DNA from: a virus
Direction: 5' to 3' (one strand)
Length of the DNA stretch: 64,000 nt
IMG/VR virus record: IMGVR_UViG_3300045988_177924
The translations under genes and the position numbers were made by a program. How positions within the stretch are numbered: position 1 is the stretch's first letter; each line of letters begins with the position of its first letter. A model generated the notes under the pieces. That model was given only the letters and a program-made list of their open reading frames with translations, was not told where the DNA came from and searched no databases. Positions 21,277 to 39,440 of the stretch are shown here, one piece after another.

Positions 21277-21612
21277 AAACTTAAATAATCGACGGGGGTG
21301 TAGCAACCCCCGTCGAGCTTTGAGTGAAATCGATCTCAAAGCTCTGTTTCGGCTTAATTTGAAATTGATAAAGGAGGCCCAAATGGCTACTGAAAAAAAA
21401 ATAAATTCACGAATTCAACAAAAACATGACGTCGCTGCCAATTGGGCAAAAGCGACAAACTTTATTCCTCAAAAAGGGGAAATTATTATATATGACGCAG
21501 AATACAATGCAAGTGGAAGTGAAACCCAGGCTGTTAGATTTAAAATCGGTGATGGCACTAGAACGGTTAATAATCTCCCATTTGCTGTTATAGATTATAA
21601 CAATAGAATCAC
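21277..21612 (+). repeat. fibre-cassette leader, copy 1 (two hairpins + RBS + first ~75 codons)
   Basis: About 80% identical by eye to 24214..24550. The similarity covers the non-coding hairpins as well as the coding N-terminus. Confidence 0.75.
21290..21343 (+). terminator. tandem hairpins (terminator-like) upstream of fibre cassette 1
   Basis: cgacggggg-tgtagcaa-cccccgtcg (21290-21315), then agctttgag-(10 nt)-ctcaaagct (21316-21343). Only a weak U tract (ctgtttc) follows. Confidence 0.4.
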
Positions 21613-22072
21613 TGCTCTTGAGAGCAAGCCTGGTTTAGACAAGGTTGGTACTGTCACATCGGTGAAAGCCAATGGAACAAATTTTAACCCTGACGCAACA
21701 GGTAAAGTTGATTTAGGGAACTTGGGTGGCGGTTCGGGACCTCTCACATTCGCTGATGTCGTTGTTATGACAGAGGCTGAATTTTCTGAAGCGTATCTGG
21801 CTGGCACTTTACAAGATGATAAATTATATTTAATTGAAGGCGAAACAGGAACGGTAAATTTTGTTTCTACCGCTGACCATATAGTTTATAATAATGCTAA
21901 TTCAGGGCTCACAGCGACGAATTTACAGAGTGCTGTTGATGAAATGTGCCAAAGATTACTAACAACTGCACAATTAAATAAACTGATTGCTTTATTAGAC
22001 AAACTCACTGTTGCTAATGATTCCGTTACCTTTAATACAATAGTTAAAGCAACAACCTTTGATGTTCAGTAA
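21383..22072 (+). CDS. short tail fibre protein with Mtd/HylP-type N-terminal domain (229 aa)
   Basis: ATG 21383 follows AAAGGAGG. MATEKKINSRIQQKHDVAANWAKATNFIPQKGEIIIYD...VRFKIGDGTRTVNNLPFA. The track start at 21320 lies inside the hairpin. Confidence 0.6.
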   Translation: MATEKKINSRIQQKHDVAANWAKATNFIPQKGEIIIYDAEYNASGSETQAVRFKIGDGTRTVNNLPFAVIDYNNRITALESKPGLDKVGTVTSVKANGTNFNPDATGKVDLGNLGGGSGPLTFADVVVMTEAEFSEAYLAGTLQDDKLYLIEGETGTVNFVSTADHIVYNNANSGLTATNLQSAVDEMCQRLLTTAQLNKLIALLDKLTVANDSVTFNTIVKATTFDVQ

Positions 22073-22083
22073 TGAGGTGAGTT

Positions 22084-24189
22084 ATGCCTATTTATATTTA
22101 TAAAGGGAATAGTCAAATTAGCACAAATGCTGTAAGAAATGATAAAGTAGTTAAAGCAATTTACGCCAAAGAACAAGGACAAGAAGCTGTGTGTGTATGG
22201 GGTGGTGGCGTAAATCTTTTGCCTTTTGCGTACACTAAAGATGCTACTTCGGTAACGATTACTGGATTAAGGACCGGTCTTACCTGGGAGCACTTAACCA
22301 TTCCTGAAAGAGTTGAAAATTTACCAGTTACTCAAATAACATCAAACGCATTTAAGGATAGCACAACACTTCAATCAATTGAATTGCCCAATTCCTTAAT
22401 TAGTATTGGTAATGATGCTTTCAATGGCTGTACCGGGCTTACGAGCATCACAATCCCCGACAGTGTCACAAGCATAGGCTCTGATGCCTTCCGTGGTTGC
22501 ACAGGTCTTACTAATATAATAATCCCTAATGGTGTGACGTATATCAGCGCTGCCTTTAGAGATTGTGCATCGCTTGAAAGCATAACGATTCCGTTTGTTG
22601 GCGCCTATGACCCAGAGGGGTTTGGATACGATGAGGTGTTTGGCTATATATTTGGATATACTACGACAAGCAGTGAGTCCTCGGTACCAGGAGCGACTTA
22701 TCAATATTATTATGGTGGTTCTTCCAGGTATTTTTATTACTACATACCATCAAGCATAAAGTCCGTAATTATAAGAGGGGGAAACATTCCATCCTGTGCT
22801 TTCAAAAATTGCACCGAACTCACAAGCATAACAATCCCTGACAGCGTCACAAATATTGGCGATGATGCCTTCTCGGGTTGTACTAGTTTGACAAGCATAA
22901 CGATTCCCGACAGCGTGACGAGCATCAGCTCTAATGCCTTCGCGGGTTGCACGGGGCTTACGAGCATTACAATTCCTGATAGCGTAACGAGCATAGACCG
23001 CAATGCCTTCGATAATACAGCATGGTACAACAATCAGCCTGACGGTCTTGTATATGTGGGTAAATTCGCTTATAAGTACAAAGGCGAGATGTCAAGTGAT
23101 ACCTCGATTGTTTTAAAAGAAGGAACATTAGGTATTAGTAATTATGCCCTTAGTGATTACAGAGGTCTTACGAGCGTTACAATCCCTGACAGCGTGACGA
23201 ACATTGGTGATTCTGCCTTTTGGGCTTGCTCTAATCTTACGAGCGTAACAATAGGCAACAGTGTGACAAGCATCGGCGATGATGCCTTCTCCGGTTGCAC
23301 CAGGCTTACGAGCATAACAATCCCCGACAGCGTGATGAGTATCGGCGATGATGCCTTCTATGGCACTACTTGGTACAACAATCAACCTGATGGACTTGTG
23401 TACGCAGGTAAAGTCGCTTATAAGTATAAAGGAACTATGCCAAGCAACACCTCGATTGTATTAAACGAAGGAACATTGGGCATTGCCGATTTGGCCTTCT
23501 ATGGTTGCAGCAGCTTGACGAGCATAACTATCCCAAACAGCGTGACGAGCATCGGCGAGCGTGCCTTCGATGGTTGCACCGGACTTACGAGTGTGACAAT
23601 CGGAAATAGCGTGACGAGCATCGACGATGAGGCTTTCCGTAATTGCAGTGGTTTAACAAGCATCACAATCCCCGACAGCGTGACGAGCATCGGCGTTCAG
23701 GCCTTCTCTGATTGCACAGGGCTTACAAGTGTGACAATAGGCAACGGTGTGAAGAGTATAGACTATTGGGCCTTTCTTCGTTGCACGGGGCTTACGAGTA
23801 TCACGATCCCTGATAGTGTGACGAGTCTTGGCAAGCAGGTTTTCCAGGATTGTGCTGGGCTTACGAGCGTGACAATTGGAAACGGCGTTACGCGCATCAG
23901 AAGGTATGCCTTCGATGGTTGTACAAGTTTGACCAATATAACGATTCCTGACGGTGTGACGAGCATCGACGTTGCCGCCTTCTGTGATTGTACTAGTTTG
24001 ACACACATAACGATTCCAAACAGCGTGACGCGCATTGGCGGAATAGTCTGCCGTAACTGCACTGGTCTTACAAACATTATATTTAAGGGTACAAAAGCAC
24101 AATGGAATGCAATAACAAAGAGCACTTCGTGGAACTCCAACACAGGTAATTATACGATCCATTGTACAGATGGAGATATACCGAAATAA
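22084..24189 (+). CDS. BspA-type leucine-rich-repeat protein (701 aa)
   Basis: About 20 tandem ~23-aa units of the form LTSITIPDSVTSIGDDAFSGCTS, the hallmark of BspA/LRR_5 repeats. Ends with the typical ..F.GTKAQWNAI.. tail. No signal peptide seen. Confidence 0.8.
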   Translation: MPIYIYKGNSQISTNAVRNDKVVKAIYAKEQGQEAVCVWGGGVNLLPFAYTKDATSVTITGLRTGLTWEHLTIPERVENLPVTQITSNAFKDSTTLQSIELPNSLISIGNDAFNGCTGLTSITIPDSVTSIGSDAFRGCTGLTNIIIPNGVTYISAAFRDCASLESITIPFVGAYDPEGFGYDEVFGYIFGYTTTSSESSVPGATYQYYYGGSSRYFYYYIPSSIKSVIIRGGNIPSCAFKNCTELTSITIPDSVTNIGDDAFSGCTSLTSITIPDSVTSISSNAFAGCTGLTSITIPDSVTSIDRNAFDNTAWYNNQPDGLVYVGKFAYKYKGEMSSDTSIVLKEGTLGISNYALSDYRGLTSVTIPDSVTNIGDSAFWACSNLTSVTIGNSVTSIGDDAFSGCTRLTSITIPDSVMSIGDDAFYGTTWYNNQPDGLVYAGKVAYKYKGTMPSNTSIVLNEGTLGIADLAFYGCSSLTSITIPNSVTSIGERAFDGCTGLTSVTIGNSVTSIDDEAFRNCSGLTSITIPDSVTSIGVQAFSDCTGLTSVTIGNGVKSIDYWAFLRCTGLTSITIPDSVTSLGKQVFQDCAGLTSVTIGNGVTRIRRYAFDGCTSLTNITIPDGVTSIDVAAFCDCTSLTHITIPNSVTRIGGIVCRNCTGLTNIIFKGTKAQWNAITKSTSWNSNTGNYTIHCTDGDIPK

Positions 24190-24213
24190 TGATTAACATC
24201 AATAAATACACAT

Positions 24214-24550
24214 AAACTTAAATAATAGACGGGGGTGTGGCAACCCCGTCGAGCTTTAAGTGAAAACGATCTTAAAGCTTTTATTTTCGGCTTAATTTGA
24301 AAACGATAAGGAGGCCCGAATGGCTGCTGAAAAAAAAATAACTTCTAGAATACAACAAAAGCACGACACTGCTGCCAACTGGGCAAACGCAACGACTTTT
24401 ATTCCCAAAAAGGGAGAAATTGTGATATATGATGCGGAATATAACACCAGCGGAGTCCAGACACAAGCAGTGCGTTTTAAAATTGGCGACGGTTCGAGAA
24501 CGATCAACAATCTCCCGTTTGCCCTAATAGATTATGACAATAGAATTACT
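24214..24550 (+). repeat. fibre-cassette leader, copy 2
   Basis: Direct repeat of 21277..21612 with the same hairpin/RBS/N-terminus order. Confidence 0.75.
24228..24288 (+). terminator. tandem hairpins, the second a good rho-independent terminator
   Basis: gacggggg-tgtggcaa-ccccgtc (24228-24250), then agctttaag-(10 nt)-cttaaagct (24252-24279) followed by tttattttc. Confidence 0.6.
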
Positions 24551-25702
24551 AGTCTCGAAAGCACGGTCAATGGACTAGGCACTGCTGCTCAAAAAGACGT
24601 AGGGTTCTTTGCTACCGCAGCACAAGGCACAAAAGCAGACAACGCTGTACCCAACACAAGAAAAGTTAATAATAAAGCTCTAAGTACAGACATTAAACTA
24701 GAACCAAGCGATGTGGGTGTCACAGAATCCGCGTTCCCTGGTTTGAATAAAACTGGTACTATTACTGAAATTAAGATGAACGGTGCAAGCAAGGGTACTA
24801 GCGGTGTTGTTGATTTGGGAACTGTTTTAACATCCTCTGACAATCTTGCAAAACTTGATACTGAAAACACCTTTACCGCTAAACAGACAATAAATTCTGG
24901 TTATGGCACTGTCAGCTTAAAAACACAGGGATATGTGGAAATAAACGCATCCTGGTTAAGCGGAAACTTGGGGGGTTTGTTAGGCATAAAACGTGACGAT
25001 ACAAGTGGTAGAATATATGCCGTCGCTACGAAGAACTTAGGGCTTGTTAGCGCTATCAGGATTAATAATTCTACCAAACAACCCGATGGCGACTGCGTTG
25101 TCGACCTTGGAACTGTTTTAACTACTCATCAAACTATTAAAACACTAAAAACAAATAACGATACAGCACAAGAAGTAAGTGCAAGTGAAGCTATTTCAGG
25201 GTCAGGAACAATAAATCTACACAAAGTTGCAAAAACTGGCAATTATAATGATTTATCTAATAGGCCAACGATTCCAACAGATACTGGTGCCACGAGTGTA
25301 GAAGTGACTGGAACAGGTAATGCTGTTACTGCGGCGTCTTACAACGCTACAAACAGAAAATTAACCTTAACAAAAGGTTCAACATTTCTCACAAGTCATC
25401 AAGATATAAGTGGAAAGGCAAACCTTGCTGGAAATAACACGTTCACAGGAGGGCAAACAATAACAGGGCAAACTTCTGGCGGATATTCGGTAGACGCAAG
25501 CGGATATGTAAGAGGCAGTTGGTTGCAATCAAGTGTTAAGTCAAATTATGGTAGGGGAACTGGAATGGTTTGTGTATTTGACAGCTCAGGCTGGATATAT
25601 TACAGGACACCGAGCGAGATTTTGACCGAAGCTGGCGGTGCCAAGGCAAGCGATATACCCACCTTCGAACTTTCGGGAGACACGTTAATTATCAACTTCT
25701 AA
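24320..25702 (+). CDS. tail fibre protein with Mtd/HylP-type N-terminal domain (460 aa)
   Basis: AAGGAGG RBS. MAAEKKITSRIQQKHDTAANWANATTFIPKKGEIVIYD...VRFKIGDGSRTINNLPFA. Shares the module NNKALS.DI.L...DVGV.E.AFPGLNKTGT.T..KMNG....SGVVDLGTV with 19569. Confidence 0.6.
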   Translation: MAAEKKITSRIQQKHDTAANWANATTFIPKKGEIVIYDAEYNTSGVQTQAVRFKIGDGSRTINNLPFALIDYDNRITSLESTVNGLGTAAQKDVGFFATAAQGTKADNAVPNTRKVNNKALSTDIKLEPSDVGVTESAFPGLNKTGTITEIKMNGASKGTSGVVDLGTVLTSSDNLAKLDTENTFTAKQTINSGYGTVSLKTQGYVEINASWLSGNLGGLLGIKRDDTSGRIYAVATKNLGLVSAIRINNSTKQPDGDCVVDLGTVLTTHQTIKTLKTNNDTAQEVSASEAISGSGTINLHKVAKTGNYNDLSNRPTIPTDTGATSVEVTGTGNAVTAASYNATNRKLTLTKGSTFLTSHQDISGKANLAGNNTFTGGQTITGQTSGGYSVDASGYVRGSWLQSSVKSNYGRGTGMVCVFDSSGWIYYRTPSEILTEAGGAKASDIPTFELSGDTLIINF

Positions 25703-25750: not shown

Positions 25751-26482
25751 ATGGAAGCAAAATTCCTCAAACGGTTAAGTGATTATAAGTACGCTCTCGT
25801 ATGCGATTTGGCGCAATACGAGAGCGGCTTTGCTCTTTTAGATGTATCAACAAATGCCCTCATAGAGGTGCAACAGATATCCGTATCTCGAACGACAGAT
25901 CAGCCTACCGGTGAAATGTATCAAATGTTCGACGAGATGGTCAATGACTTCTTGGATAGGTACAATCTTCAGGCAGAAGATTTAATTATTATTAAAGAAC
26001 AACTGCCTATTAACTGCGGACCACACTCAACGGCTCAAACATTACAGGCCCTTGCGGCGGCACACGCAGTTTTCAATATCAACACTTATTTAAGAAAACT
26101 CTATACTTATTCCAACGGTATTCATTCGATTTCTGTGAAGACATATTTCAAGAAACTTCTAGGGATTGAGAAACCGCAAAAAGACGACATCCGTGCGGCG
26201 GTATGTAAATATTACGACATCGATCCCGAATCGATTACGCGCGACGAATCAGACGCCATCGCACTTTGGTTCTGTCTTCGAGGTGCCAAATGGAATAAAG
26301 ATATAGACGACCAAATTAAACTTGAAAAAAAACATCGCAAAACTTTGACAGCAAATCATGCCATCAAAGATGTCGATAATGAAATAGAAAGATTGGAGGG
26401 ACTCAAATGGGACGAACAACAGTTTACAACGCAAATCTCACTCAAGCTTGGCCTTCAGTCAGTAAGCCAAACAGACAATTAG
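25751..26482 (+). CDS. RuvC-like Holliday junction resolvase (243 aa)
   Basis: The acidic catalytic positions line up with RuvC: ALVCDLAQYESGFALLDV (first Asp strand), LIIIKEQLP (Glu), DESDAIALWFC (terminal D..D, cf. RuvC ADAADALAIA). Confidence 0.65.
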   Translation: MEAKFLKRLSDYKYALVCDLAQYESGFALLDVSTNALIEVQQISVSRTTDQPTGEMYQMFDEMVNDFLDRYNLQAEDLIIIKEQLPINCGPHSTAQTLQALAAAHAVFNINTYLRKLYTYSNGIHSISVKTYFKKLLGIEKPQKDDIRAAVCKYYDIDPESITRDESDAIALWFCLRGAKWNKDIDDQIKLEKKHRKTLTANHAIKDVDNEIERLEGLKWDEQQFTTQISLKLGLQSVSQTDN

Positions 26483-27399
26483 TTAAAGAGTTTATAGATT
26501 ATTGCAAAGCGAATGACCGCAGTGCGCAAACCATCAAGCAGTATGAGGCTCAGTTGAAGGTTTTCTTCTGTTGGAATTATACCGAGAATGAAGACAAGTT
26601 TTTCATCGATCTCAAAAAGCGAGATTTTGTGAGATACATTGGTTATTTGCGCGGGCTCGGTTTGAGTTCTAATAGGGTGGCTTCTTTAAAGTCCGCCATC
26701 AGCAGTCTGTCGAACTGTATTGAGGTTTTGGACGAAGATTTATATCCAAACTTTAGGAATTTAATCAAAAGCCTTGAACCGGTGCACAAAGAACCAGTAC
26801 GCGAAAAAACGGTGTTGACCGACGAACAAGTCGAAGAGTGTTTAGACAAACTCTTGGCACAAGGTCAGTGTCAAATAGCCTGTGCACTCGCATTAAGTTT
26901 TGCGTCGGGAATGAGAAAGGCCGAATTGACCAGGATGAAGGTTGAGTTTTTTGATGACGCACATTTAATTCTTAATGGTAAAATGTACAAAACGGGTGTC
27001 ATTAAGACAAAAGGACGCGGCTCAAACGGAAAGCAGATTCCTAAATATGTATTAAAAAATAAATTTCAACCCTATTTTGATGCTTGGATGAAACAGCGCG
27101 AGGAGCGCGGAATAGAATCGCCATGGCTATTTGTGACTACCAGTGATGGCAAATTTGTTCAAGCAACGGTGTCGCAAATGAATACGTACGCTGAGAAGAT
27201 TGGTGCGTTGATGAATGTGCCTTTTTATTTCCACTGTATGAGACATTTGTGGACAACTAATATGCAAAAAGAAGGTATTTCGGATTCGGCTATTGCTGAA
27301 ATCCAATCTTGGGATTCTCTTGAAATGGTCAAGAGATATTCAGATATTCCGACAGAAGAGCGTTGGGCTCAATTTTTTGTTGGAGACGAAGAGGAGTGA
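26407..27399 (+). CDS. tyrosine recombinase / integrase family protein (330 aa)
   Basis: GGAGGG RBS. SAM-like N-domain (TIKQYEAQLKVFF). Catalytic signature ASGMRKAEL (Arg), FHCMRHLWTT (H-x-x-R), SWDSLEMVKRY (Trp/His position and nucleophile Tyr). Overlaps the resolvase gene by 76 nt. Confidence 0.85.
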   Translation: MGRTTVYNANLTQAWPSVSKPNRQLVKEFIDYCKANDRSAQTIKQYEAQLKVFFCWNYTENEDKFFIDLKKRDFVRYIGYLRGLGLSSNRVASLKSAISSLSNCIEVLDEDLYPNFRNLIKSLEPVHKEPVREKTVLTDEQVEECLDKLLAQGQCQIACALALSFASGMRKAELTRMKVEFFDDAHLILNGKMYKTGVIKTKGRGSNGKQIPKYVLKNKFQPYFDAWMKQREERGIESPWLFVTTSDGKFVQATVSQMNTYAEKIGALMNVPFYFHCMRHLWTTNMQKEGISDSAIAEIQSWDSLEMVKRYSDIPTEERWAQFFVGDEEE

Positions 27400-28112: not shown

Positions 28113-31100
28113 ATGGAAGGAATGGACTATACTCCCATTTTAACAAGCGTTGGTTCGGCTGATAGTGCAATTATTGCGATGCTCGAAGATTCGCAACTTA
28201 CCGCAGAGAATTTAGGGACGACAGCCGCATATTTAACAGACACTTTAAAAACAACAACTGATAAACAGTTAGAGGCTGCAGTTCAACAACAAAAAATCAC
28301 ACAAGCCCAACAAAAGGCGCTTGCTTGGATTCGAGATAATTTTGAACAATTTCCTGGTGAAGTAAGGAAAACTCTTAAAGACACTTTTTCGAGTTTGTCA
28401 ACACAGATGGCCAAATTGCCTCCCGCTGTAGTCCACGAAGCTACTCGAACGTTAGTGTTGCCGTTGGTTGATAAAATTATCGGTAGCTTAAACGATGAGG
28501 AAATTGGCCGCTTGGCTATGGCGAAGATAAATCAGGGTTTAGGTGTGGACAACTTAAACAAGTACTCTGCTGGTTATAGAGCAATCTTTGAACAAATTAA
28601 CAAAGAGTACAAATCGGTTTTAAAAGATTCTACTGACCTTAGTGAACAATTTAAAAAAGCCAAGAAAGCACTTGCTAACACCACTTTAGCGGACTTTTCA
28701 TCCACGAGTGGCTCGCCAGCGGTGAATAGAGAAATTGCCACATTGCTAGATATGGCAAAAAAGGCCAAACAACAAAAAAATCCCGATTACAATCCAACGA
28801 TAACCAACAAGGATGTTACTGGTAGTGCTCGTAGAGTAACAAAGGTCGCAGAAAAAATACAACAAAACGCTTTCTCGACGCAGAAAGAAGCGGAAAGTAT
28901 TATTCTTCAATATTTTGATCCCAAAAAATTGACTCAAGAGGGGAAAAATCGTGCCAAGCAAGCCGCGGAATATGCTGCTAATATGCAAAAAGCGGGATAT
29001 GGAGTAAGCTTCGCCCAAGATAACGGTTCTCAAGAGATTAAAGTTATTGTTTATGACAAAAATAGTGTCAATGCTTTCGATAGAAAGGGAAGGGTAAATC
29101 GTCAAAATGCCGCCATTGCTTCTTTTGCGGTTGGGGGCTTAGATAAGCGAAATGACGATTATGTAATTGATCAAGCCAAGAGAGTGAAAGTGTCGGATGC
29201 CGAGGCTCAAAAATTTGTTGAGATGTCTCAACATGCTCCCAAAACAATCGCAAGTGCGCGTAAACGTATTGGGGACATTAAAAACGAAACTGTTCACAAA
29301 TCAACCTCAAAGTTTGATCGACAAGACAACCTGTATGGTGTTGGCGCAGATAAGGCGTTAGTTGAAAGCAGAACTCGTTTTGAGAATGAGGCGAAACGTT
29401 TAGCAAAATTTGAGAAAGATCAAGGTTCTACCATGACCGAATCGGAACTCGTTAAGTTGTTTTCTCAAATGTTTGTTAGCTTTGCTGGATTTGGGGAGCG
29501 GGATATTGGCGTACAAAAGAGTTTACGAGACCAACAAATGAAAAACGGTCTCTCAGACGCAGTTATACGAGAATTTAATAAAAACTTTTCTTGGTTACCT
29601 TTGGTTGGCTCAATGGGTGAGGAAGATTCTGGCCACTATCGACTGTGGGGCGCCAAAGAAATGAAGGACAAAATGGCCCTCGTAACTCGTAAAATACAAG
29701 GTCGTGATATCCAGCCTTACGCTAAACAAGGTAAACCCGAACGTGTACAAAACATAGAAGTTGACGTCAACCGTTTGTTTGATCAAGTTGACGATTTGCT
29801 TAATAGCGCAGACGACAAAAAACGCGAGGCGGCGCAACTCCTTGATAAAAATCGTGACTTAATCGAGGGTTTGGTTGATGGTATGGCCCTGGTGTCGAAA
29901 GATCAAATTCAAAATTTGGACACAATTCGAGAGGGCGTATCGGTTAAGATTTCTAAAGCCGATTTGTTCAAATACGGGTTAAAAGGCAAGAAGAAGAAAA
30001 GTGCCGAAAACAGACGAAAAGCCTATCAAAAACTTTTGGCGGCCGAAGGCCGAGAGGCCACGGATGATAATGTTGATTTTTATATTGATCCTGAGACAGG
30101 AGATGTAACCTTAACCGGGAAAGAGGTGGTTAGGGCGCATACGGGTACAAAAGCCAATAGTGCCTACGGTAACTTACGTGTCGTTTATCGTGAAGTAGTT
30201 CCAGAAGTTATTAAGGCTATTTCCACAATAACAGGAGTTGAATTAATGCCCGAAAAAGACTCGCGCGCGACTGTGGTGTCAGCAAGAGAAGAAACCAGTT
30301 CAAGAAATATCGGACCGCTTGTAACTAGGGCTATAGACAACGCGATAAATGAACTAGATAAGAGTCAGATTGAAGCCAGTGTGAACAAACTTGGTACCAC
30401 AAACCTGTCGACCAACATTGGACAAGCCTTAGTTGACGTTTTGTTGAAAAAATTGAGCTTTAGCGATGCTTTGGACAAGTACGTGGGCTCAAACGTATCG
30501 GCTCGTACCAAATTTACGGGTGAAACCTTATATCTGTTAGATGAGTTGACGGGCGGAAAAAATGGATATGAAATTGTTGATGGGAAATTACAAACTAAGG
30601 CCCTTGCGTCTAGCTTTACTGATGTTGTTGGCGCACGTTATGGTGAATATGAACCAAGAGGTGCGGCCAGCTTGCCAACAAACTGGGAAGTAGAAGATCT
30701 TGAACGTTCGGCTCGTGCAGCCGGTGTGGAAATAACCCCCGAAAATAGTGATTTTTTACGCACTGTTCAACTTGTTGCTTTTGGAGCAACCGCAAACGAT
30801 ATCGAAGAAAAAAAGAAACTTATACGAGACTATAATGAACATATTGAGCGTCAAGCTCAACTAATAGGTTCGCGAGCGGGGTTAAACCCTGATTATATCA
30901 ATCGAAATGCGGGTGTTAACACAATCGTTGTTGGCTCAAAAGACATATATGGCAATCAAGCACACTTTATTGACATAAACGCACTTCGTCGCACTGAGAA
31001 ATTAGACAACGGACAAAGTGATCCCGAACAAAGAGGTGAAACCATTTGGGGTAAACTTGATGAGCAGTTGCAATCTATAGACCAAACTCAAGCAAAAATT

Positions 31101-34100
31101 TTGGTTGATTTGGGCGCGGATATGGGAGAAGCGCGATATTTCGATTTGGGCAAATACACTGATGAAATTGGAGATTATAACGAAAGTTTAGAAAGTTTAC
31201 TTGACGCGGTTCGAACGGGGAAAACAGCGTCCGAAAAGAAAGACTTGCTAACCGCTGTCTTAAAGGCAGAGGCTTACAACTTTGAAAACACTGGCGGGGC
31301 TGTTAATGAACAATTCTTAGCAAAAATGGCTCGCCACCAAGAAGAGGCAAGGAAAGCGGCTCAAGAGAGATATGATAAGAAATATAAGAAACGTTTAGCG
31401 TACTCTACGTTTTATGGCGAAAATACCAATATTGTAGCGACAGATACTACGAATGAAGTTGACGCCTTGCAAGAACGCATGAAGGATAGCGGTACTTATG
31501 TCGATAAAGAACATATTAGAGCAAGTGTCGCGCTTGGGTTGAATGCCTATAAGGGTGATGATAATGATGCTTTTGTAAAAAACTTAGCGCAATATTTGCA
31601 ACTTTTTGCAGAACAGGGGCAAGACAAAGCTATCGAATCAGCTCTCGCCAATCAAAACTTTAAGAATTTTGCCGAAATGGTCGATTTTGCGACCAATATT
31701 TTTACCACGGGAACCTCAGAACATGAGAATTTTTATGGCGGCACGAATCCTATTTTAAGTCGCGGTGTTGAAGCTGTATTGGGGAGGCAGCCTTATAGCC
31801 AAGCCATTAACTTACAATACGGAGGGTTGGTCTTTGGTAAAGAGGGCCTAGGAACAAACGTAATCGAAAGTAACCGTGGTCTCAACAAATTGATCATGGG
31901 GGATTTTGACGGTGATAAATTATACACCGCTTTAGTTCAACTTCGACAGGCTGCCCAGCTAATAGGCGCTACTTCCGAACAGTTTGGCTGGTTAGACGAA
32001 ACCTTGGAAAGAGTCAAACGTTATAATGAATTTTTATATAGAGTTATAGGAAAGAATATTCCGGCTATTACCTCATCCGACGCCGACTCATCGGTAATTC
32101 TTGATTTGGCGAAAAATCAAGTGTTAAACGATAAGCAAATGGCAATAGTGCGTTCCTATCAAAACCAGGCGAAAGACAAAACGGGTAACTGGTCCAACGT
32201 TGCAAAAGGTGCTCGAAATGTTTTAGAGTTACAAAAGTTGGGTACGGGTGCTGTTGTAGGCGGAGATTTGAATTCAACTATCGACTTTATTAAGGGGTCG
32301 TTTGTTTTTGAAGCACTAGAACAAGCTGAGCAAAATGCGATTTCTTCTAAGAAACTTTGGGACGTTGCAATCCAAGATATGCAAACCACGCTTGGTTCCG
32401 ATTTGGATAAAGTTGATGAACAAACGTTCGCTGAGCAACTTGACAAGTCTTTTAATATCGCGATTAACAAAGTTATTGATGAAGTTTACAAAAATAAAGC
32501 AAATGTGAACGATGTGATTCAAGCCGGTGCGGAACAAGGAATCTATAAAGACAACAAATTAGAGGCCTGGCGTTCCCAACGAATATTGGGCACTTTGGCG
32601 ATGAGCAAAAACGTTTCAGCGTACAAAGCTTTGGAAGAGTCTGGTATTTCCCCAGGTGACTTGGAAGCAATTGCTCAAATTGTTAAACCGGGCCGGAATT
32701 GGGAAAGTTTCAGAGGTCAACAAGGTGACTTTCAAAGTCAGTTACTGGACCAACTGAATCAAGGCGCTTTTAACCAATTTGGCTTTAGTGTAGACACATT
32801 AAAGGCATTTGGCGGCAATTTAGATGATGATTTTTTAGCGCAGGCTAAACAAGCACACGGGCGATTCCGTGAAGAAACAGGTCCTACAGGGCTTGGTACG
32901 GCAGCTGGAGAACTTATCAAAGCTATTAACAAATTAACGGTAGCAGAGACAAAAGTTGATAAGACAGGATTCGACCCTAAAATTGTTAGTATATTAGAAG
33001 AAATTCGAGACTTGCTTGCTAAACAAGGCCGAGGCGGTCTTAACGGACGTTATGGGCAGACCTATATGACACCAACGGGTATTGTCTCGAGTTTAAATCC
33101 TTCTTCGATCGATGAATCGGCTTGGGGTTATTTACAGGGAAGAATGTTAGGGTTTAAGGGTTCAAATATCGATTGGACAAAACTAAATGTCAAAGAAAAG
33201 GCAAAACAGTTTGGCTACGCGGATATAGAACAATTTAAACAAGATAGAGAAGGTGTAGTTAGTACGTTTATAGGAACACTAGCTCACGCATTTTCTGAAG
33301 GTGAGATTAAACAGGATCCTGAAATTTTTAAACAAGCAACAAAGGATTTTACACAAGCTTTATCAATGCTGTTTGATAAAAAGGATGTCGACAAATATTT
33401 ACTTGTTGCAAATGAATATGCACAAAGGGGTTATAACGCATACGACCGATTAGCTGGACCAGACGCGTATCGTGCGGCGGAAGAACGGGTGCGATTAAAT
33501 GAGAATTCTGATGTGGTAAAAGGTAAGACTGACGCCATTTACACAAGTAAGCGTATGGCTGAAAGTGGTCAAGAATATCAAGTGTTTAATGTTGTTGACT
33601 TTAAAAACAAGGCTAAAGTTGATGCTAATAGTATAGAACAGGTCTTGATTTATGTCGAGATGTACCGCCGTATTAAACAAGATTTGGATAAATTGGTGCG
33701 AGAAATTGGAGAAGACGCTGCTTTGGAAAAAATGAGCAAGCAGACACTCTTGTCGGCTGATACATTACGCCAATTACACGAATCGTTGGATGTTAGTGCT
33801 CAAATTGTCCAAAATTATCAAGGGAAAACCAAAGTGTATGATGTCGCAAATGTTCCCAGAGACATTGCGCAAGCTCTGGTGGAGGGGCGTTCTTTAACGG
33901 CAGAACAACAAAAGATTATAAATAATGCTGCCACAGCGTCGTCGCCACTGACACAAACCATGTCGCCTGATTTCCAAAAAAAATATTATAAGCTCACCGG
34001 TGAAATTTTTGGGGTAGATGGGTATAGTAAAAATACGGTTGATTATGAGAAAAAAATAGCTGAACAAAAAGCTCTTGAGGAACAATTAAATAAAGTTCAA

Positions 34101-37100
34101 ACAGAGCAAGGCGAAGAATCAACCGTGTTTAAGAAACTCACACAATATTACAACAATCTTCTCGAAGAAATTAAGGCTCTGGAAGAAATTCGCAAACGAC
34201 AGGTTCAAGAATTAAAACTTACCAAAGGTATGAAGGGGTCGGTGACACGCACGACTCGCAATCAAGTTCAACAACTTCTCGAAACGGGAGATTTACACTT
34301 TGGGTATGAAAAAATTCTAAAAGATGATGAGAAACAGCGCTTACTTGCCCAAAAGCAACGAGAAGCCGTATTGAACCAGTACAAACGCTATAACGATCAG
34401 ATTGCTAAGACGGAAAAGGACATGTTGGTTTTGGACAAACAATCTAGAACCACACCGAGTAAACTCGAAAGAGGAATTCAAGCCGATAGAGGACAAATTG
34501 ATATACTAAAGGCTGAACTCAAAGAGTTAGTTGAAAAACGTAATCTGCTTGTTGAAAACAATAAATTGACACAGGCAGAAACCGCCGAAGCCGATGCTCA
34601 ACTTCAAACCAAGAGAGAATTAAACAGGCTTAAGGTTGCTGGAATGGCCAAGGGCGCCGGGAATTGGTTAGATGTTATTGGAAGTGGTGTTAAAAATACC
34701 ATTACGAGAATGTTCGATTACAATGGTGTATATCGTATTCTGAATCGTATAACACAAGGTTTGCGTCAGCTTGTGCAACAGGTAAATGAGCTTGATGTTG
34801 CAATGTTCAACTTGCAAGTTGTTAGTGGTGACAGTCGTCAAGAAGTTTCAGCATTAATTAATGATTATGGCAAACTTGCTCAACAATTACACACTACTAC
34901 AACTCAAATTGCTGCTTCGGCAAACGAGTGGCTTAGACAAGGTTATGAAGCAGGACAGGCTAACGAGCTGATCAAAGCTTCAACATATTTGAGCAAATTA
35001 GGCATGATTGAGGCTGGCCAAGCTACAACTTATTTGACGTCTATGATCAAGGGCTTCAAATTAGAGGCTGCCGACGCAGTTAATATTGTTGACAAGTTAA
35101 CCGCTGTTGATATGGAAGCGGCTGTTAGCGCTGGTGGTATTGCTGCAGCAATGCAAAACGTTGCAACAACTGCTCAGTTAGCGGGGTTATCCATTGATAA
35201 AACAATTGGTTACTTGTCAACCATGATTGAAGTTACCCAACGAGACCCTTCCTCTATGGGTATGGCTTTGCGCACGGTTTTAGCGCGTTATGGTAATGTT
35301 AAAGCAGGGACTTTCACAAATATGACGGGTATAGAAAGTTCCGATGCTGATTTAGAAAATGTTAACGATATTGAAAAAGTTTTAGGCAAAGTAGGAATAC
35401 GCATTCGCGAAAATGCACAAGAGTTTAGAGATTTCGGAGACGTAATTGATGAACTGAGTGAAAAGTGGCAAAAATACGATTCTGTTACTAAAAACGCGAT
35501 TGCTACTGCTATGGCTGGTGTTCGTCAACGTGAATCTTTCTTGGTTTTAATGGAAAACAAAGATAGGGCTGACGAGTTGGAAGATGTGTCATCTTTATCA
35601 AAGGGCACCGCCGACACAAAATATGCTGCTTACCAACAGACGTTAATGGCAGCAAAGGCCGATTTACAGACGTCACTACAAAGTTTGGCAAAATCAATAC
35701 AAGACAGCGGATTACTTATTGCCTTTACCAAGTTGGCTAATATTTTGATTAAAACGGTTGTTCCTGGGTTTAACGCGCTTGCTTCTATGCTATGGGCGCG
35801 AAATTCGTTTAAACTAACAGAACAAATCAAATATAGTTTAAACCAACGTAAAACAACTTCCGCAGCCTCTCTCGGATTTTTTGCACAAAAAACACAACAA
35901 GAAGCATTAAGAAGACAAGAGTGGCAACAGGAGTTTTATAAAAAGAAAGAGGGCACTAATCAAACGTATGTTGACAGGTTATTGGGGAAAACATCACCCA
36001 AGACTGCGCTTTCGTCGTTTACTAATGTGTTGAATGATGCGTCTACAGCAGTACGTGGTTTTACGGGTGCCATAAATGGCTCACCGGTTCAGTCCACAAC
36101 CTCTTCTCAAGCACCATCGAAGACGCCTGTGGTAGATCCAAGGCGTCTGGTGTATACCGAGGCCGGCGAGTGGCCTAGTGTAGATGAATACGCCAAAGGT
36201 TCTAGGTTTAGACGCCTTAATAGGGCAAAAATTCGTAAAGATTTACAAAGCGGTCGCATAACCACTGTTGACGCGAGCAATATTAAACAAAAATATAAAC
36301 AAATAGCAAAAGAAGATCGACAACAAGCCAAAGCACTTTTAGGCCAGCAAATTACAGGGAACGTAGCAGGTGCGGTTGGCGCCGGTGTCACCTCTGCATT
36401 AACCACGGGGTTTAACCAAGAGGGTTCCGCAGGGGCGAAGGCGACTGCTGGAGTTACAGCTGGTGCTTTGACAGGTGTTGGTGCATTATTTGGTCCAATG
36501 GGAGCGGTTATAGGTTCCACTTTGGGTTCAATATTGGGACCGGTTTTTGCTAAATTGGTTGACAAAGAAGAAAACGAACGTAAACAACGTGCAGAAGCAG
36601 CTCAGAAACAATTGGACGCTTTAAATTCATTAAACAATACATTTGATGAAGTGCATGATTATACCGAGAAAGAGTATTTAACTTCAGAGGCCATTTTAGC
36701 TATTAAAGAGCGAGTTGACTCTATTGACGAGCAGATGGCTACAAGTGGTTTAAGTTTCGACGATTATCTTAAACAAGCTGCTACCCAACTTGGATTGGGT
36801 GAGGATTTTCAAACTATAGAAGATATTCGTGAGCTATTAACCGCTGCTGATGAGAAAACTCGTCAAAAGGCACAAGAGGTGTTTGACTTAGCCCAAAGTA
36901 TGGCCAAAGTACAAACAACGCAAGAGTCCAAGGCAGTGTCGGATATGTCATATGATGAGAAGAGAGTTTATTGGCGGGCATTAGACAAAGAGTATATTAA
37001 ACAAGCGTTTATTACATCTGGTCTGGAGCAAATGTCGCTTCGTCAGTTGTCTCAAACAAATCTTGATGACGCAATCAAACAAGTTGCCGCACAATTTGAA

Positions 37101-39440
37101 AAATTGGAACTTACGCCCAAGTCGTTTGCTCTTTATGACTCGAAAGGAAATGTGACAGAAGAGGCTGCGAAGTATATTACCGATCAATTGCGTAAATCCG
37201 ACAGGATGCAGGAGTTACTGCAAGGTTCTGTTTTGACGCTTTCTGAGGCTTTACAGGATAAGGACAAAAACGCCAATGTGATAGAATCTTTTGCGTCGGC
37301 TTTGGGGGTTTCAACGACGCGTCTTGAAGAGATGTCGAAGCAACTGGGGGCGCTTAAATTATCTGATTTGGTTAAATCCTCTTCTCAGTTACGCGAAATG
37401 CTCAACGGGTTGTACAGCATTCTAGACAGTTATTACGAAACGGGGTATTTGGACTTAGATGCTCAGGAAAAAATTATTTCTAATTATCCCGAATATGTTG
37501 ATTTCATTTCAGATCCCAGCAAGATTGTTGACCACATCAACCAAATAACGGCGGGTGTGAAAGAGTTGCATATAAGAAACTCTTTAAACGATTGGGCAAA
37601 AAACGAAAAAAATGCCGAGATTTACGTACGTGATTTTCTCAAGAGTTACCAAAATGGTGATTACAAAGGCTTGTTTACGGACAAAAGGTATTTTGGCGAA
37701 CTTAGTACTCCCGAACAAATGCTTCAGCGCATCGAGCTCCTGCTCAACGCCGATGACGAGAACGAGGCTGTTTTAAATGCCGTAAAAAACAATATTACAC
37801 AAGGTATGAAGAACCATGAGGCTATAGCTACAGCTTTAGCCGAACAGCTAGATAATTCTAAGAAACTTGAAAGTGTCAATAAGTATTTGGATAAATCTTA
37901 TGAAAAACAAATTAACGCACTAGAAGAACAAAAATCTGCACTAGAGCAAATCAACAGTCAACGGGAATATGAAAATAAACTTATTGAGGCTAAAATTAAA
38001 CTTGAGAACGCTCAAAACGAAAAGAAGAAAGTGTGGAGAGAAGGCGTTGGTTGGGTTTACGAAGCAGATACTGCCGCAATCGCAGATGCTCAAAAAGAGT
38101 TGGAAGATTTGGACAATGAGAAAAAAATTAACGAATTACAAACTCAAATTGATGAACTGCAGGCACAGCGCGAATATCTTGGGGACATTGCCAGTACCCA
38201 AGAGCTTGAGGGATTAAAAAAGGTTTATGAAAGTTGGCAAAAAGAAATAGGTATTAGTAACACAGGACAGGCACAGGCATTACATTATTTTGCTGAGGCT
38301 TATACCAAAATTCAACGACTAAACCTTGATACAACTCAAACAGGCTCCGACGGCAAGAAGACAGAGGATTATTTAAAAAATATCTCGGATAAACGCATTG
38401 AAGCCTTGGGTGCTGCCAAGGGAGCTTTTGAAGCAGGCATCACTGAAGCACCAGCATCGCGACAAGATTATACAGTAGCCGCTGTTGAGCAAGTTAACAA
38501 ATACAATAGTAAACTATCAGATTTTAAAAAAAGTGCTGATAAGTATTTGGAAGCTGGCGGTTCAAAAGAAGAATTGGCAAAAGAACTGGGGCTTACAACG
38601 GATGATAAAGGGACTGCAGTAGACAAACTCGACGCAATGCTAAATCGTGAAGAAGTGAAATTGGCGCCTGTTCGAGGAGCATATTTTGACTGGGATGGGC
38701 GGAAAAATATTTATGCGACTTGGCAACCGAGTCAAACCACCGATGCAGGGTGGAAAAAAGCCAAATCCAAAGACACGTACGTTTTACTAAACGGTGGAAA
38801 ATGGGCTCGTGTAGATCAAGCGTTTGGCATTTCGGAAAACAAAGGGTTGGACGACCCTAAATATGCTGGGCTATTTTTTGTTGAACTTAAGGGCAAAGAT
38901 CAACTTTTTTGGAATTCTGGGAATGGCATGTACAAAGCCTCTTTAAACGAAAAGGATTATGCGCAGACCCAAGGTGTTGATGATAGCGCGCCCGTTTCGT
39001 TCCCTACTCTAGAGGGCGGTTTTAACAAAGGTTACGATCTCGATCGCACTAAAAAATGGTTAGCATTAGAAGGCTTTGGGGCACACGCCGATGGTACTCT
39101 ATCTACCGCCGGTGGCCTCTCTCTCGTCAATGACGATCCTCAATATGGTCTTGAAGGCATCATTACTCCTCAAGGTACTTTGACGGCTCTTCCGTCGAAG
39201 TCTGGAGTTGTTCCCGCCGACCTTACGCGCAACGTATGGCAACTGGGCGAGGTTGCTCCTAACCTGATTAAACAACTTGTGGACATCAATGGCAAGTTCA
39301 GTCACACAACAGGGTTCGGAACCGACGAATCGTTTAATGTTGAACATCTGGATGTTCATATGGTTGCTCAACCTGGGTTTGATATGGATGACTTTGTGCG
39401 ACAACTTCAAGCTGCACGTAATCTCACAAGACATTCTTAA
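28113..39440 (+). CDS. giant tail tape measure protein (3,775 aa) with ~2,200-aa N-terminal extension
   Basis: GAGGAGG RBS. TP901-type TMP core is recognisable at aa ~2190-2530 (..TQIAASANEWLRQGYEAGQANELIKASTYLSKLGMIEAGQATTYLTSMIKGF..VDKLTAVDMEAAVSAGGIAAAMQNVATTAQLAGLS..). Glycine-zipper hydrophobic segment at aa ~2750-2817. Long coiled-coil C-terminal third. Confidence 0.8.
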   Translation: MEGMDYTPILTSVGSADSAIIAMLEDSQLTAENLGTTAAYLTDTLKTTTDKQLEAAVQQQKITQAQQKALAWIRDNFEQFPGEVRKTLKDTFSSLSTQMAKLPPAVVHEATRTLVLPLVDKIIGSLNDEEIGRLAMAKINQGLGVDNLNKYSAGYRAIFEQINKEYKSVLKDSTDLSEQFKKAKKALANTTLADFSSTSGSPAVNREIATLLDMAKKAKQQKNPDYNPTITNKDVTGSARRVTKVAEKIQQNAFSTQKEAESIILQYFDPKKLTQEGKNRAKQAAEYAANMQKAGYGVSFAQDNGSQEIKVIVYDKNSVNAFDRKGRVNRQNAAIASFAVGGLDKRNDDYVIDQAKRVKVSDAEAQKFVEMSQHAPKTIASARKRIGDIKNETVHKSTSKFDRQDNLYGVGADKALVESRTRFENEAKRLAKFEKDQGSTMTESELVKLFSQMFVSFAGFGERDIGVQKSLRDQQMKNGLSDAVIREFNKNFSWLPLVGSMGEEDSGHYRLWGAKEMKDKMALVTRKIQGRDIQPYAKQGKPERVQNIEVDVNRLFDQVDDLLNSADDKKREAAQLLDKNRDLIEGLVDGMALVSKDQIQNLDTIREGVSVKISKADLFKYGLKGKKKKSAENRRKAYQKLLAAEGREATDDNVDFYIDPETGDVTLTGKEVVRAHTGTKANSAYGNLRVVYREVVPEVIKAISTITGVELMPEKDSRATVVSAREETSSRNIGPLVTRAIDNAINELDKSQIEASVNKLGTTNLSTNIGQALVDVLLKKLSFSDALDKYVGSNVSARTKFTGETLYLLDELTGGKNGYEIVDGKLQTKALASSFTDVVGARYGEYEPRGAASLPTNWEVEDLERSARAAGVEITPENSDFLRTVQLVAFGATANDIEEKKKLIRDYNEHIERQAQLIGSRAGLNPDYINRNAGVNTIVVGSKDIYGNQAHFIDINALRRTEKLDNGQSDPEQRGETIWGKLDEQLQSIDQTQAKILVDLGADMGEARYFDLGKYTDEIGDYNESLESLLDAVRTGKTASEKKDLLTAVLKAEAYNFENTGGAVNEQFLAKMARHQEEARKAAQERYDKKYKKRLAYSTFYGENTNIVATDTTNEVDALQERMKDSGTYVDKEHIRASVALGLNAYKGDDNDAFVKNLAQYLQLFAEQGQDKAIESALANQNFKNFAEMVDFATNIFTTGTSEHENFYGGTNPILSRGVEAVLGRQPYSQAINLQYGGLVFGKEGLGTNVIESNRGLNKLIMGDFDGDKLYTALVQLRQAAQLIGATSEQFGWLDETLERVKRYNEFLYRVIGKNIPAITSSDADSSVILDLAKNQVLNDKQMAIVRSYQNQAKDKTGNWSNVAKGARNVLELQKLGTGAVVGGDLNSTIDFIKGSFVFEALEQAEQNAISSKKLWDVAIQDMQTTLGSDLDKVDEQTFAEQLDKSFNIAINKVIDEVYKNKANVNDVIQAGAEQGIYKDNKLEAWRSQRILGTLAMSKNVSAYKALEESGISPGDLEAIAQIVKPGRNWESFRGQQGDFQSQLLDQLNQGAFNQFGFSVDTLKAFGGNLDDDFLAQAKQAHGRFREETGPTGLGTAAGELIKAINKLTVAETKVDKTGFDPKIVSILEEIRDLLAKQGRGGLNGRYGQTYMTPTGIVSSLNPSSIDESAWGYLQGRMLGFKGSNIDWTKLNVKEKAKQFGYADIEQFKQDREGVVSTFIGTLAHAFSEGEIKQDPEIFKQATKDFTQALSMLFDKKDVDKYLLVANEYAQRGYNAYDRLAGPDAYRAAEERVRLNENSDVVKGKTDAIYTSKRMAESGQEYQVFNVVDFKNKAKVDANSIEQVLIYVEMYRRIKQDLDKLVREIGEDAALEKMSKQTLLSADTLRQLHESLDVSAQIVQNYQGKTKVYDVANVPRDIAQALVEGRSLTAEQQKIINNAATASSPLTQTMSPDFQKKYYKLTGEIFGVDGYSKNTVDYEKKIAEQKALEEQLNKVQTEQGEESTVFKKLTQYYNNLLEEIKALEEIRKRQVQELKLTKGMKGSVTRTTRNQVQQLLETGDLHFGYEKILKDDEKQRLLAQKQREAVLNQYKRYNDQIAKTEKDMLVLDKQSRTTPSKLERGIQADRGQIDILKAELKELVEKRNLLVENNKLTQAETAEADAQLQTKRELNRLKVAGMAKGAGNWLDVIGSGVKNTITRMFDYNGVYRILNRITQGLRQLVQQVNELDVAMFNLQVVSGDSRQEVSALINDYGKLAQQLHTTTTQIAASANEWLRQGYEAGQANELIKASTYLSKLGMIEAGQATTYLTSMIKGFKLEAADAVNIVDKLTAVDMEAAVSAGGIAAAMQNVATTAQLAGLSIDKTIGYLSTMIEVTQRDPSSMGMALRTVLARYGNVKAGTFTNMTGIESSDADLENVNDIEKVLGKVGIRIRENAQEFRDFGDVIDELSEKWQKYDSVTKNAIATAMAGVRQRESFLVLMENKDRADELEDVSSLSKGTADTKYAAYQQTLMAAKADLQTSLQSLAKSIQDSGLLIAFTKLANILIKTVVPGFNALASMLWARNSFKLTEQIKYSLNQRKTTSAASLGFFAQKTQQEALRRQEWQQEFYKKKEGTNQTYVDRLLGKTSPKTALSSFTNVLNDASTAVRGFTGAINGSPVQSTTSSQAPSKTPVVDPRRLVYTEAGEWPSVDEYAKGSRFRRLNRAKIRKDLQSGRITTVDASNIKQKYKQIAKEDRQQAKALLGQQITGNVAGAVGAGVTSALTTGFNQEGSAGAKATAGVTAGALTGVGALFGPMGAVIGSTLGSILGPVFAKLVDKEENERKQRAEAAQKQLDALNSLNNTFDEVHDYTEKEYLTSEAILAIKERVDSIDEQMATSGLSFDDYLKQAATQLGLGEDFQTIEDIRELLTAADEKTRQKAQEVFDLAQSMAKVQTTQESKAVSDMSYDEKRVYWRALDKEYIKQAFITSGLEQMSLRQLSQTNLDDAIKQVAAQFEKLELTPKSFALYDSKGNVTEEAAKYITDQLRKSDRMQELLQGSVLTLSEALQDKDKNANVIESFASALGVSTTRLEEMSKQLGALKLSDLVKSSSQLREMLNGLYSILDSYYETGYLDLDAQEKIISNYPEYVDFISDPSKIVDHINQITAGVKELHIRNSLNDWAKNEKNAEIYVRDFLKSYQNGDYKGLFTDKRYFGELSTPEQMLQRIELLLNADDENEAVLNAVKNNITQGMKNHEAIATALAEQLDNSKKLESVNKYLDKSYEKQINALEEQKSALEQINSQREYENKLIEAKIKLENAQNEKKKVWREGVGWVYEADTAAIADAQKELEDLDNEKKINELQTQIDELQAQREYLGDIASTQELEGLKKVYESWQKEIGISNTGQAQALHYFAEAYTKIQRLNLDTTQTGSDGKKTEDYLKNISDKRIEALGAAKGAFEAGITEAPASRQDYTVAAVEQVNKYNSKLSDFKKSADKYLEAGGSKEELAKELGLTTDDKGTAVDKLDAMLNREEVKLAPVRGAYFDWDGRKNIYATWQPSQTTDAGWKKAKSKDTYVLLNGGKWARVDQAFGISENKGLDDPKYAGLFFVELKGKDQLFWNSGNGMYKASLNEKDYAQTQGVDDSAPVSFPTLEGGFNKGYDLDRTKKWLALEGFGAHADGTLSTAGGLSLVNDDPQYGLEGIITPQGTLTALPSKSGVVPADLTRNVWQLGEVAPNLIKQLVDINGKFSHTTGFGTDESFNVEHLDVHMVAQPGFDMDDFVRQLQAARNLTRHS
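31782..31916 (+). other. double-psi-beta-barrel RNA-polymerase-like catalytic signature inside the TMP ORF
   Basis: aa 1224-1268 read GRQPYSQAINLQYGGLVFGKEGLGTNVIESNRGLNKLIMGDFDGD. Compare beta-prime/Rpb1 NR(A/Q)P(T/S)LH...NADFDGD and the RdRP/YonO-type GDxDGD. Confidence 0.45.

Follow-up and report, generated by a model that had tools for sequence, protein, structure and literature searches.

The P23-45-like phages of Thermus are the only group shown to fuse a virion RNA polymerase (RNAP) to the tape measure protein. In phage P23-45, the tape measure protein gp96 (5002 amino acids [aa]) is present in virions at full length and includes, at residues 327-1124, an active RNAP with DFDGD at 779-783, which binds and transcribes the pre-early genes at the genome's left end, gene 64 for another RNAP, a non-virion one, among them (Chaban et al. 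2024, Nat Commun 15:317; PMC10770324). The crystal structure of gp96 is that of a clamp-less 'flat' two-barrel enzyme, for which, according to the authors, similarity to known RNAPs is undetectable beyond the motif; gp96 and gp64 cluster together and were read as products of an ancient gene duplication (PMC10770324). Among GenBank phages, tblastn retrieved relatives of gp96 in ten Thermus phage records only. Here, we analyze a stretch of 64,000 nucleotides (nt) from the IMG/VR virus record IMGVR_UViG_3300045988_177924 (hereafter, the window), in which the N-terminal part of a giant tape measure protein carries a set of RNAP-like motifs. The initial annotation of this DNA had supposed that no such fusion was described, which is wrong, because gp96 is an active, crystallized, virion-borne RNAP fused to a tape measure protein (PMC10770324).

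We consider it probable that aa ~560-1560 of the window protein form a highly diverged single-chain two-barrel RNAP joined to the tape measure; by analogy with gp96, it would leave the virion before the DNA does and transcribe the first genes. The protein is encoded by a single open reading frame (ORF) that comprises, in this order, an N-terminal extension, the RNAP-like module, a nuclease-like domain, a coiled coil, the tape-measure core, membrane segments and a C-terminal domain. The gene and the features of its RNAP-like part, where DPBB denotes a double-psi beta-barrel, are as follows.

28113..39440, + strand: giant tape measure protein ORF, one unbroken frame of 3775 codons
29790..32792, + strand: RNAP-like module, approximate bounds aa 560-1560, which aligns in three clades and holds all RNAP-like conserved blocks
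30138..30188, + strand: candidate beta4 strand and basic loop of DPBB-B (beta-type barrel), HTGTK680ANSAYGNLR689VVY, placed by hhalign on PGDK1065-x5-GNK1073GVIS of E. coli beta
30297..30314, + strand: SSRNIG motif, like PSRMNIG of the beta subunit, with R731 and G734 invariant and N732 near-invariant in 16 sequences
31785..31793, + strand: R1225-Q-P1227, candidate DPBB-A strand (compare NRAPTLH of beta', FRNP of gp96 and NRRP of gp64)
31902..31916, + strand: D1264-F-D-G-D1268, candidate Mg2+-binding catalytic loop, with D-x-D-G-D invariant in all clades
32172..32225, + strand: bridge-helix candidate K1354-DKTG-NWSN-VAKGARN-VL, aa 1354-1371, by resemblance only
32319..32354, + strand: candidate for the N-terminal part of a trigger loop, EQAEQNAISSKK, aa 1403-1414, by resemblance only

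RNAP-like motifs in the N-terminal region of the tape measure protein

The module was first recognized by its similarity to the catalytic signature of the RNAP beta' subunit, reported as GRQP-x35-GDFDGD at aa 1224-1268. This description is exact: nt 31782-31925 translate to GRQPYSQAINLQYGGLVFGKEGLGTNVIESNRGLNKLIMGDFDGDKLY, with 35 residues between the proline and the glycine. DxDGD occurs once in the six frames of the window. When the residues of the giant protein were shuffled (n=20,000), DxDGD appeared in 8% of the shuffles, RxP-x28-45-DxDGD in 0.12%, and the version of the latter with F/Y at the second position of the loop in 0.015%. Among 14 relatives with 51-95% identity, no other block in the first 2275 residues is as conserved as the 40-aa block that contains the motif (0.93 column identity). 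The expected conservation of the RQP arginine and the DFDGD aspartates among homologous giant tape measure proteins was observed in all three clades: in an alignment of 16 sequences from these clades (18-22% identity to the window), R1225, D1264, D1266, G1267 and D1268 are invariant and P1227 is near-invariant, with the aspartate loop reading DFDGD, DYDGD or DTDGD depending on the clade. The distance from the arginine to the first aspartate is 39 in all three clades; gp96 and gp64 have 38, and E. coli beta' has 35. Judged by its rarity in shuffles, the conservation of the surrounding block and the residues that are invariant in three clades, the RxP...DxDGD motif is more than a chance occurrence and is under selection.

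The partner, beta-type barrel of two-barrel RNAPs carries a basic loop, for which the initial annotation had proposed GKEVVRAHTGTKANS, located at aa 669-683. A candidate basic loop does lie upstream of the aspartates, as proposed in spirit, but the register anchored on G669-K670 is wrong by ~10 residues and was rejected, because both hhalign and the cross-clade alignment place the loop at G678-T-K680...R689. In this register, G678 is invariant, G686, N687 and R689 are near-invariant, and position 680 is occupied by K or R in every clade; in the distant family member P0019, the corresponding segment is VGDKLLGSGGIKDTI, that is, the canonical GDK-x7-K. In the reference enzymes, the beta4 strands of gp96, gp64, QDE-1 and beta carry K-G-x-[VI] (PMC10770324). 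E. coli beta was the top hhalign partner of this upstream region; compared with the whole subunit (1342 residues), the profile of aa 560-800 selected residues 1054-1121 (hhalign, P 0.15), pairing HTGTK680-ANSAY-GNLR689 with PGDK1065-MAGRH-GNK1073G and SSRNIG734PL with PSRMNIGQIL.

Downstream of the aspartate loop, two further conserved blocks resemble the bridge helix and the trigger loop's N-terminal segment. In the 16-sequence alignment, no clade departs from K1354, G1358, S1361, R1368 and L1371 of the candidate bridge helix, with N1362 invariant only in a 9-sequence alignment (A4) and replaced by D in P0014; its G-x-x-S-N signature (TGNWSN) resembles LGMCTN of QDE-1 and VGITAN of crAss gp66 in a published structure-based alignment. 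In the candidate trigger loop, Q1407, A1409, I1410, S1411, K1413 and K1414 are invariant across clades, and the string QNAISSKK resembles QIITDRKK of gp96 and NLVDQSKG of QDE-1. The two blocks follow each other in the expected order, 90-150 residues past the aspartate loop, which is inside the range of the references, namely the structure-based alignments of gp96, gp64, QDE-1, crAss gp66 and Thermus RNAP (Suppl. Figs 7-10 of PMC10770324). The canonical zinc-binding and trigger-loop sequences of beta' were not identified in the RNAP-like module.

This pattern of conservation bears on an alternative that we hold to be distinctly improbable, namely, that the module is a true homologue of two-barrel polymerases other than an injected DNA-dependent RNAP. 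It might be a dead form retained as a structural or DNA-binding plug, an enzyme of another nucleotidyl transfer, which might make primers, copy RNA templates (as QDE-1 does) or make DNA (as PolD does), or an enzyme that is cleaved off and acts in the producing cell. The evidence at the level of homology is identical under this alternative, and QDE-1 and PolD demonstrate that enzymes of this fold can use other templates and make other products; the noncanonical second basic residue of the beta-type barrel and the adjacent nuclease-like domain, which hints at broader nucleic-acid processing, also fit it. However, ~80% divergence has left the RxP arginine, all three aspartates and the conserved basic residues unchanged, which argues for retained catalysis, and gp96, the only characterized tape-measure fusion, is an active DNA-dependent RNAP found at full length in virions.

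Family, profile and fold comparisons

A profile of aa 560-1720 found only 4 representatives among 1.84 billion representative proteins, and the RNAP-like module thus constitutes an isolated family. Two of the 4 proteins are divergent, namely, P0016, with ARNPYSQ...GDFDGD, and P0017 (E 1.8e-10), with GRLPFMNG...NADYDGD, a loop that is nearer to the canonical NADFDGD of beta' than is the GDFDGD of the window. When P0017 served as the seed, P0018 was recovered in addition, as was P0019 (TRFP...GDTDGD), a tape measure protein at a still greater distance, and a three-clade profile returned a single close relative from the big protein database. All members of the family are N-terminal parts of tape measure proteins with the PF10145 domain. 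Neither megablast nor tblastn with the window module produced a match among GenBank phages, and none of 185,579 scanned bacterial and archaeal genomes carries the tape measure gene, so that no prophage form of this phage was recovered.

In sequence libraries, distant members matched models of RNAP subunits weakly but specifically. For the P0017 module, the sole match among 38,880 PHROG families is phrog_2987, 'RNA polymerase beta subunit', which covers the motif segment (E 1.1e-3, and 2.8e-4 with a shorter fragment). Likewise, the sole NCBIfam match of P0018 is the RNAP subunit gamma, at the equivalent motif positions (E 0.06). In profile-profile comparisons with hhalign, the module family scored 26.3 with the gp96 family (P 0.03), 25.9 with beta' (P 0.027) and 20.1 with beta (P 0.15), compared with 18.9 or less for the reversed and unrelated controls, so that the correct partners rank top; the DFDGD of the window was set on the DFDGD at 779-783 of gp96 and on NADFDGD of beta'. 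When gp96 was submitted to the same tests as a positive control, it scored 31.8 (P 0.012) with beta' and 20.4 (P 0.28) with beta, and it has no RNAP match in PHROGs or NCBIfam. Because this proven enzyme is equally undetectable by the same methods, the negative profile results carry little weight, and the profile methods used cannot discriminate RNAP from non-RNAP here.

A number of observations nevertheless weigh against a polymerase in the tape measure protein. The window's own sequence, searched as the whole ORF and as fragments, has no RNAP match in Pfam, PHROGs or NCBIfam, where only tape-measure matches were obtained, and searches of PDB sequences with the single sequence and with the 16-sequence profile returned coiled-coil noise and no RNAP. 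The PHROG and NCBIfam matches described above are weak, come from a single member each and might be driven largely by the NADYDGD string, and the hhalign P values are in the range of 0.03-0.15, with confident columns extending barely beyond DFDGD. Comparison of the module with the separate PF05183 RNAP encoded by related genomes (see below) was not significant in hhalign. In the candidate beta-type barrel, the second universal lysine is displaced by one position from the canonical register (L688/R689), and the ~450-aa connector between the putative barrels sets the module apart from the clamp-less gp96 and prompts the question of how such a module fits the tail tube. The module family is known only from metagenomes.

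Structure prediction adds to these points. AlphaFold2 runs on aa 470-1560 (16 sequences) and on aa 1085-1480 (9 sequences) reached mean predicted local distance difference test (pLDDT) values of 59.8 and 56.1, respectively, with the motif region below 50 in each, and both models have low-confidence helices and no barrel at aa 1209-1268. Three Foldseek searches against PDB and BFVD yielded nothing at E <= 0.001; the non-significant PDB matches of top probability are second-largest subunits of RNAP, namely, B. subtilis beta (6zfb_X, at 0.44) and Rpb2. The two DPBB domains anticipated by the initial annotation were therefore not recovered, with no barrel at the motif and no significant structural match, but models of this quality are too poor to refute them, and on their evidence the double-psi beta-barrel fold is unconfirmed rather than refuted. 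Of the proposal that this region is an RNAP catalytic center, the parts that stand are a layout conserved like that of a catalytic site, the collinear RNAP-like signatures and the weak matches of distant members; the fold is the part that is unconfirmed.

The same results bear on the possibility that RxP...DFDGD occurs here in an unrelated fold, such as a Ca2+/Mg2+-binding acidic loop or a structural domain of the tail or ejection apparatus, and that the other RNAP-like motifs have been over-interpreted. Acidic loops of the DxDxDG type are common metal-binding sites, DxDGD alone is not rare in the shuffled protein, the flanking motifs were compared post hoc, and, in line with such an explanation, the window's sequence lacks a significant profile or structure match to any RNAP and AlphaFold2 gave no barrel at the motif. 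We nonetheless regard it as unlikely. The composite motif is rare by chance, and its spacing is identical and its key residues invariant in three clades; hhalign found the beta-type motifs at the right place in beta, unsought; and the best or only library matches of two distant members are RNAP subunits aligned on the motif segment. As for the missing matches, gp96 is equally undetectable, and the AlphaFold2 models are too poor to count. We therefore retain a diverged two-barrel RNAP as the probable identity of the module.

The tape measure fusion and its genomic setting

Within the same ORF, the RNAP-like module is located N-terminal to an unequivocal tape-measure core, in agreement with the initial annotation, which had noted a TP901-type core in this polypeptide. 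The C-terminal two-thirds is a true tape measure protein: in addition to the PF10145 domain, eight PHROG tape-measure families match aa 1855-3511, and a Kyte-Doolittle hydrophobicity scan (19-residue window) revealed two membrane-type segments. The features of this part of the protein are listed below.

33255..33677, + strand: PD-(D/E)xK (RecB/Cas4-type) nuclease-like domain, aa ~1715-1855, with the motifs GTLAHAfsE, GKTDAIY, VVDFKNK and QVLIY
34872..35519, + strand: PF10145 PhageMin_Tail, TP901-type tape-measure core, aa 2254-2469 (Pfam, E 2.9e-26, 93 bits compared with a cutoff of 33.2)
35706..35798, + strand: hydrophobic membrane-type segment, aa 2532-2562
36453..36563, + strand: glycine-rich hydrophobic membrane-type segment, aa 2781-2817

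The nuclease-like motif set is conserved in all three clades and sits between the RNAP-like module and the coiled coil and tape-measure core. The orthologous segment of P0016 matches PF12705 (PDDEXK_1; 33.5 bits compared with a cutoff of 22, E 5.5e-8), and the window's own segment has no direct match in Pfam.

The majority of the database relatives of the giant ORF stop at ~2270 aa, as if the RNAP-like part resided on a separate protein. This interpretation was rejected because the apparent boundary is a split of the gene by a group I intron rather than a real gene boundary. In locus L001, the tape measure gene is broken at ...NEWL (region 10896-13022) by such an intron (Rfam RF00028, 83.1 bits, E 4.9e-21), with a 538-aa DUF7487/Mom-like ORF, probably a homing endonuclease, coming next, after which the PF10145 part resumes. 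The insertion site lies inside the PF10145 region and corresponds to nt ~34935 of the window (codons W2273-L2274-R2275), and many relatives are split there. The window's copy of the gene has no intron, and Rfam at the gathering threshold is empty across the window. Unsplit, intron-less orthologues of 3771-3801 aa are present in loci L003-L005, and P0015 is one of 3782 aa. Because these unsplit ORFs exist and the split copies are interrupted by the group I intron only, the fusion is conserved.

The giant ORF lies in a structural module that is entirely on the + strand and encodes terminase, portal, head, tail-fibre-like and tail proteins. Related IMG/VR contigs, 85-135 kb in length and with few exceptions from a single metagenome, also carry this tape measure gene. 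A scan of the fetched loci for a second ORF with RxP...DxDGD identified in these contigs a gene for a ~960-aa protein with CRSPMIDSHEH...SDSDFDGD, which matches the PF05183 RdRP family (E 4.6e-12, 45.8 bits compared with a cutoff of 23.8).

1449-4331 of locus L019, also present in L018 and L020-L027: PF05183 RdRP-family ORF, a short way outside the window, at 4-7 kb upstream of the terminase

The gene was found in 10/10 related contigs, including the one (L018) with a terminase that is 100% identical to that of the window, and therefore the lineage very probably has two polymerases, a free-standing PF05183 RNAP and a cryptic module in the tape measure protein. For the exact genome analyzed here, in which the gene would lie outside the window, its presence is deduced from these relatives. 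The PF05183 protein is likely the non-virion partner of the pair. In four contigs, the contig end is 1.3-1.45 kb upstream of the gene. When the terminal 8.4 kb of one related contig was searched for promoter-like motifs that recur, only repeats at chance level were found.

In 6 of the 10 contigs (L018, L022, L023, L024, L026 and L027), the PF05183 gene is interrupted by an insert of ~265-270 nt (at ~2940-3210 in L018), which is placed precisely inside the codons for DFDGD (...SDSD / insert / (F)DGDVVMS). As with group I introns, U is the last nucleotide of the 5' exon and G that of the insert; Rfam assigned the insert to no family at E <= 1.

These observations suggest how the protein might work. 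The beta-type barrel would occupy ~aa 600-745, with the basic loop G678-x-K680...G686-N-x-R689 and SRNIG, and would be followed by a connector of ~450 aa and by a beta'-type barrel with R1225-x-P and the Mg2+-binding loop D1264-F-D-G-D1268; the putative bridge-helix-like (1354-1371) and trigger-loop-like (1403-1414) elements would come next, and the remainder would comprise the PD-(D/E)xK nuclease-like domain, the coiled coil, the PF10145 core and the two membrane segments. The giant protein would be assembled within the tail tube and, at infection, ejected before the DNA, with the hydrophobic part forming or lining a channel through the envelope. From established tape-measure biology and from P23-45, we infer that the N-terminal polymerase module would be the last to exit, meet the incoming genome and transcribe the first genes without the host RNAP. 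The first genes plausibly include that of the separate PF05183-type RNAP, which is located ~1.3-4.5 kb from the recurrent contig end in relatives.

Several additional features of the window and its relatives were observed. The terminase of the window (151-1854) is 100% identical to that of contig IMGVR_UViG_3300045988_176671 (loci L018 and L006), the RNAP-like module of which is just 36% identical to that of the window and belongs to the P0016-like clade. Because these two levels of identity occur in the same contig pair, the sequences indicate that mosaicism or the exchange of modules is strong in this group of phages. Directly upstream of the tape measure gene, in the usual place of the tail assembly chaperone, is a tyrosine-recombinase/integrase-like ORF (26407-27399, +; PHROG integrase, E 1.5e-31; PF00589 in the L001 orthologue). 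Farther upstream, five consecutive ORFs (16536-25702, +) share an N-terminal tail-fibre or 'tail assembly' domain (phrog_19976 and related families), differ toward the C terminus and resemble a set of paralogous fibre-like proteins. The far end of the structural region (60696-62852, +) has an ORF with a weak radical-SAM match (PF04055, E 5e-5, below the cutoff) and, after it, one for a protein with a glycine-rich domain (PF21722, above the cutoff).

Comparison with known polymerases

It is evenly poised whether the family described here represents a second lineage of tape-measure-fused virion RNAPs, independently diverged or evolved beyond the Thermus phages, with at least three deep clades in uncultured long-tailed phages of ~110-130 kb, in which an ejected machine combining RNAP and PD-(D/E)xK domains would act in tandem with a separate QDE-1/YonO-type RNAP whose gene is near one end of the genome. 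If so, coupling of DNA entry to self-transcription through the tape measure would be a recurrent strategy rather than a thermophile oddity, and the injection of a polymerase through a long tail would answer the first-transcript problem more generally. The family would also contribute very divergent sequences to the study of the evolution of two-barrel polymerases, keeping beta-like motifs that gp96 lost, and a new combination of a polymerase and a nuclease-like domain in an ejected protein. More generally, tape measure annotations can hide enzymes that are missed by standard hidden Markov model libraries.

The concept of a virion-delivered polymerase that transcribes the first genes is shared with gp66 of phi14:2, a crAss-like phage, and with the virion RNAP (vRNAP) of phage N4. 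In particular, gp66 is a two-barrel enzyme within a protein of >2000 aa, and its bridge helix, with VGITAN, resembles the G-x-x-[ST]-N signature of the window protein. In contrast to the window phage, these are short-tailed phages in which the polymerase is a capsid or ejection protein rather than a tape measure protein. The N4 vRNAP is a T7-like enzyme, not a two-barrel one. Searches against PDB sequences found no match between the module and gp66 or N4 vRNAP. With QDE-1 and the eukaryotic RNA-dependent RNA polymerases (RDR) and with the YonO-type RNAP (PF05183), the module would have in common the presence of both barrels on a single chain and a DxDGD loop, but it has no PF05183 match. With respect to the multisubunit enzymes, the similarity extends to both large subunits, with G-T-K...GN-L-R and SSRNIG in the window corresponding to GDK...GNKG and PSRMNIG of beta, and GRQPYSQ...GDFDGD to NRAPTLH...NADFDGD of beta', whereas the module is contained in one polypeptide and lacks significant global similarity to these subunits.

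The closest counterpart is gp96, which nonetheless differs from the window protein in several respects. There is no detectable sequence homology between the two modules, given that tblastn found none and hhalign aligns DFDGD only. The candidate catalytic loop is at residue 1264, compared with 779 in gp96, following an extra N-terminal region of ~450-550 aa, and the predicted connector between the barrels, from SRNIG (734) to the region before RQP (1225), spans ~450 aa, compared with a disordered segment of ~75 aa (605-679) in gp96. The beta-like SRNIG and GN-x-R motifs are kept in the window protein and lacking in gp96. The window protein has a PD-(D/E)xK nuclease-like domain, whereas gp96 has a metallopeptidase domain, none of which was detected by Pfam in the window protein. 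The co-resident RNAP is a PF05183 RdRP-family protein with no detectable similarity to the tape-measure module, unlike gp96 and gp64, which cluster together. Furthermore, the activity and virion location of gp96 have been demonstrated, whereas those of the window module are predicted by analogy. Beyond these differences, both are giant tape measure proteins with an N-terminal RxP...DFDGD motif (FRNP...DFDGD in gp96) of nearly the same spacing (38 in gp96 and 39 here). The two proteins also agree in having the module ahead of the tape-measure and membrane part and in showing essentially no detectable similarity in sequence to cellular RNAPs. Finally, a second, separate two-barrel RNAP is encoded in the P23-45 genome and, here, in the genomes of close relatives, so that the virion and non-virion RNAPs of P23-45 are paralleled by the tape-measure module and the PF05183 gene.

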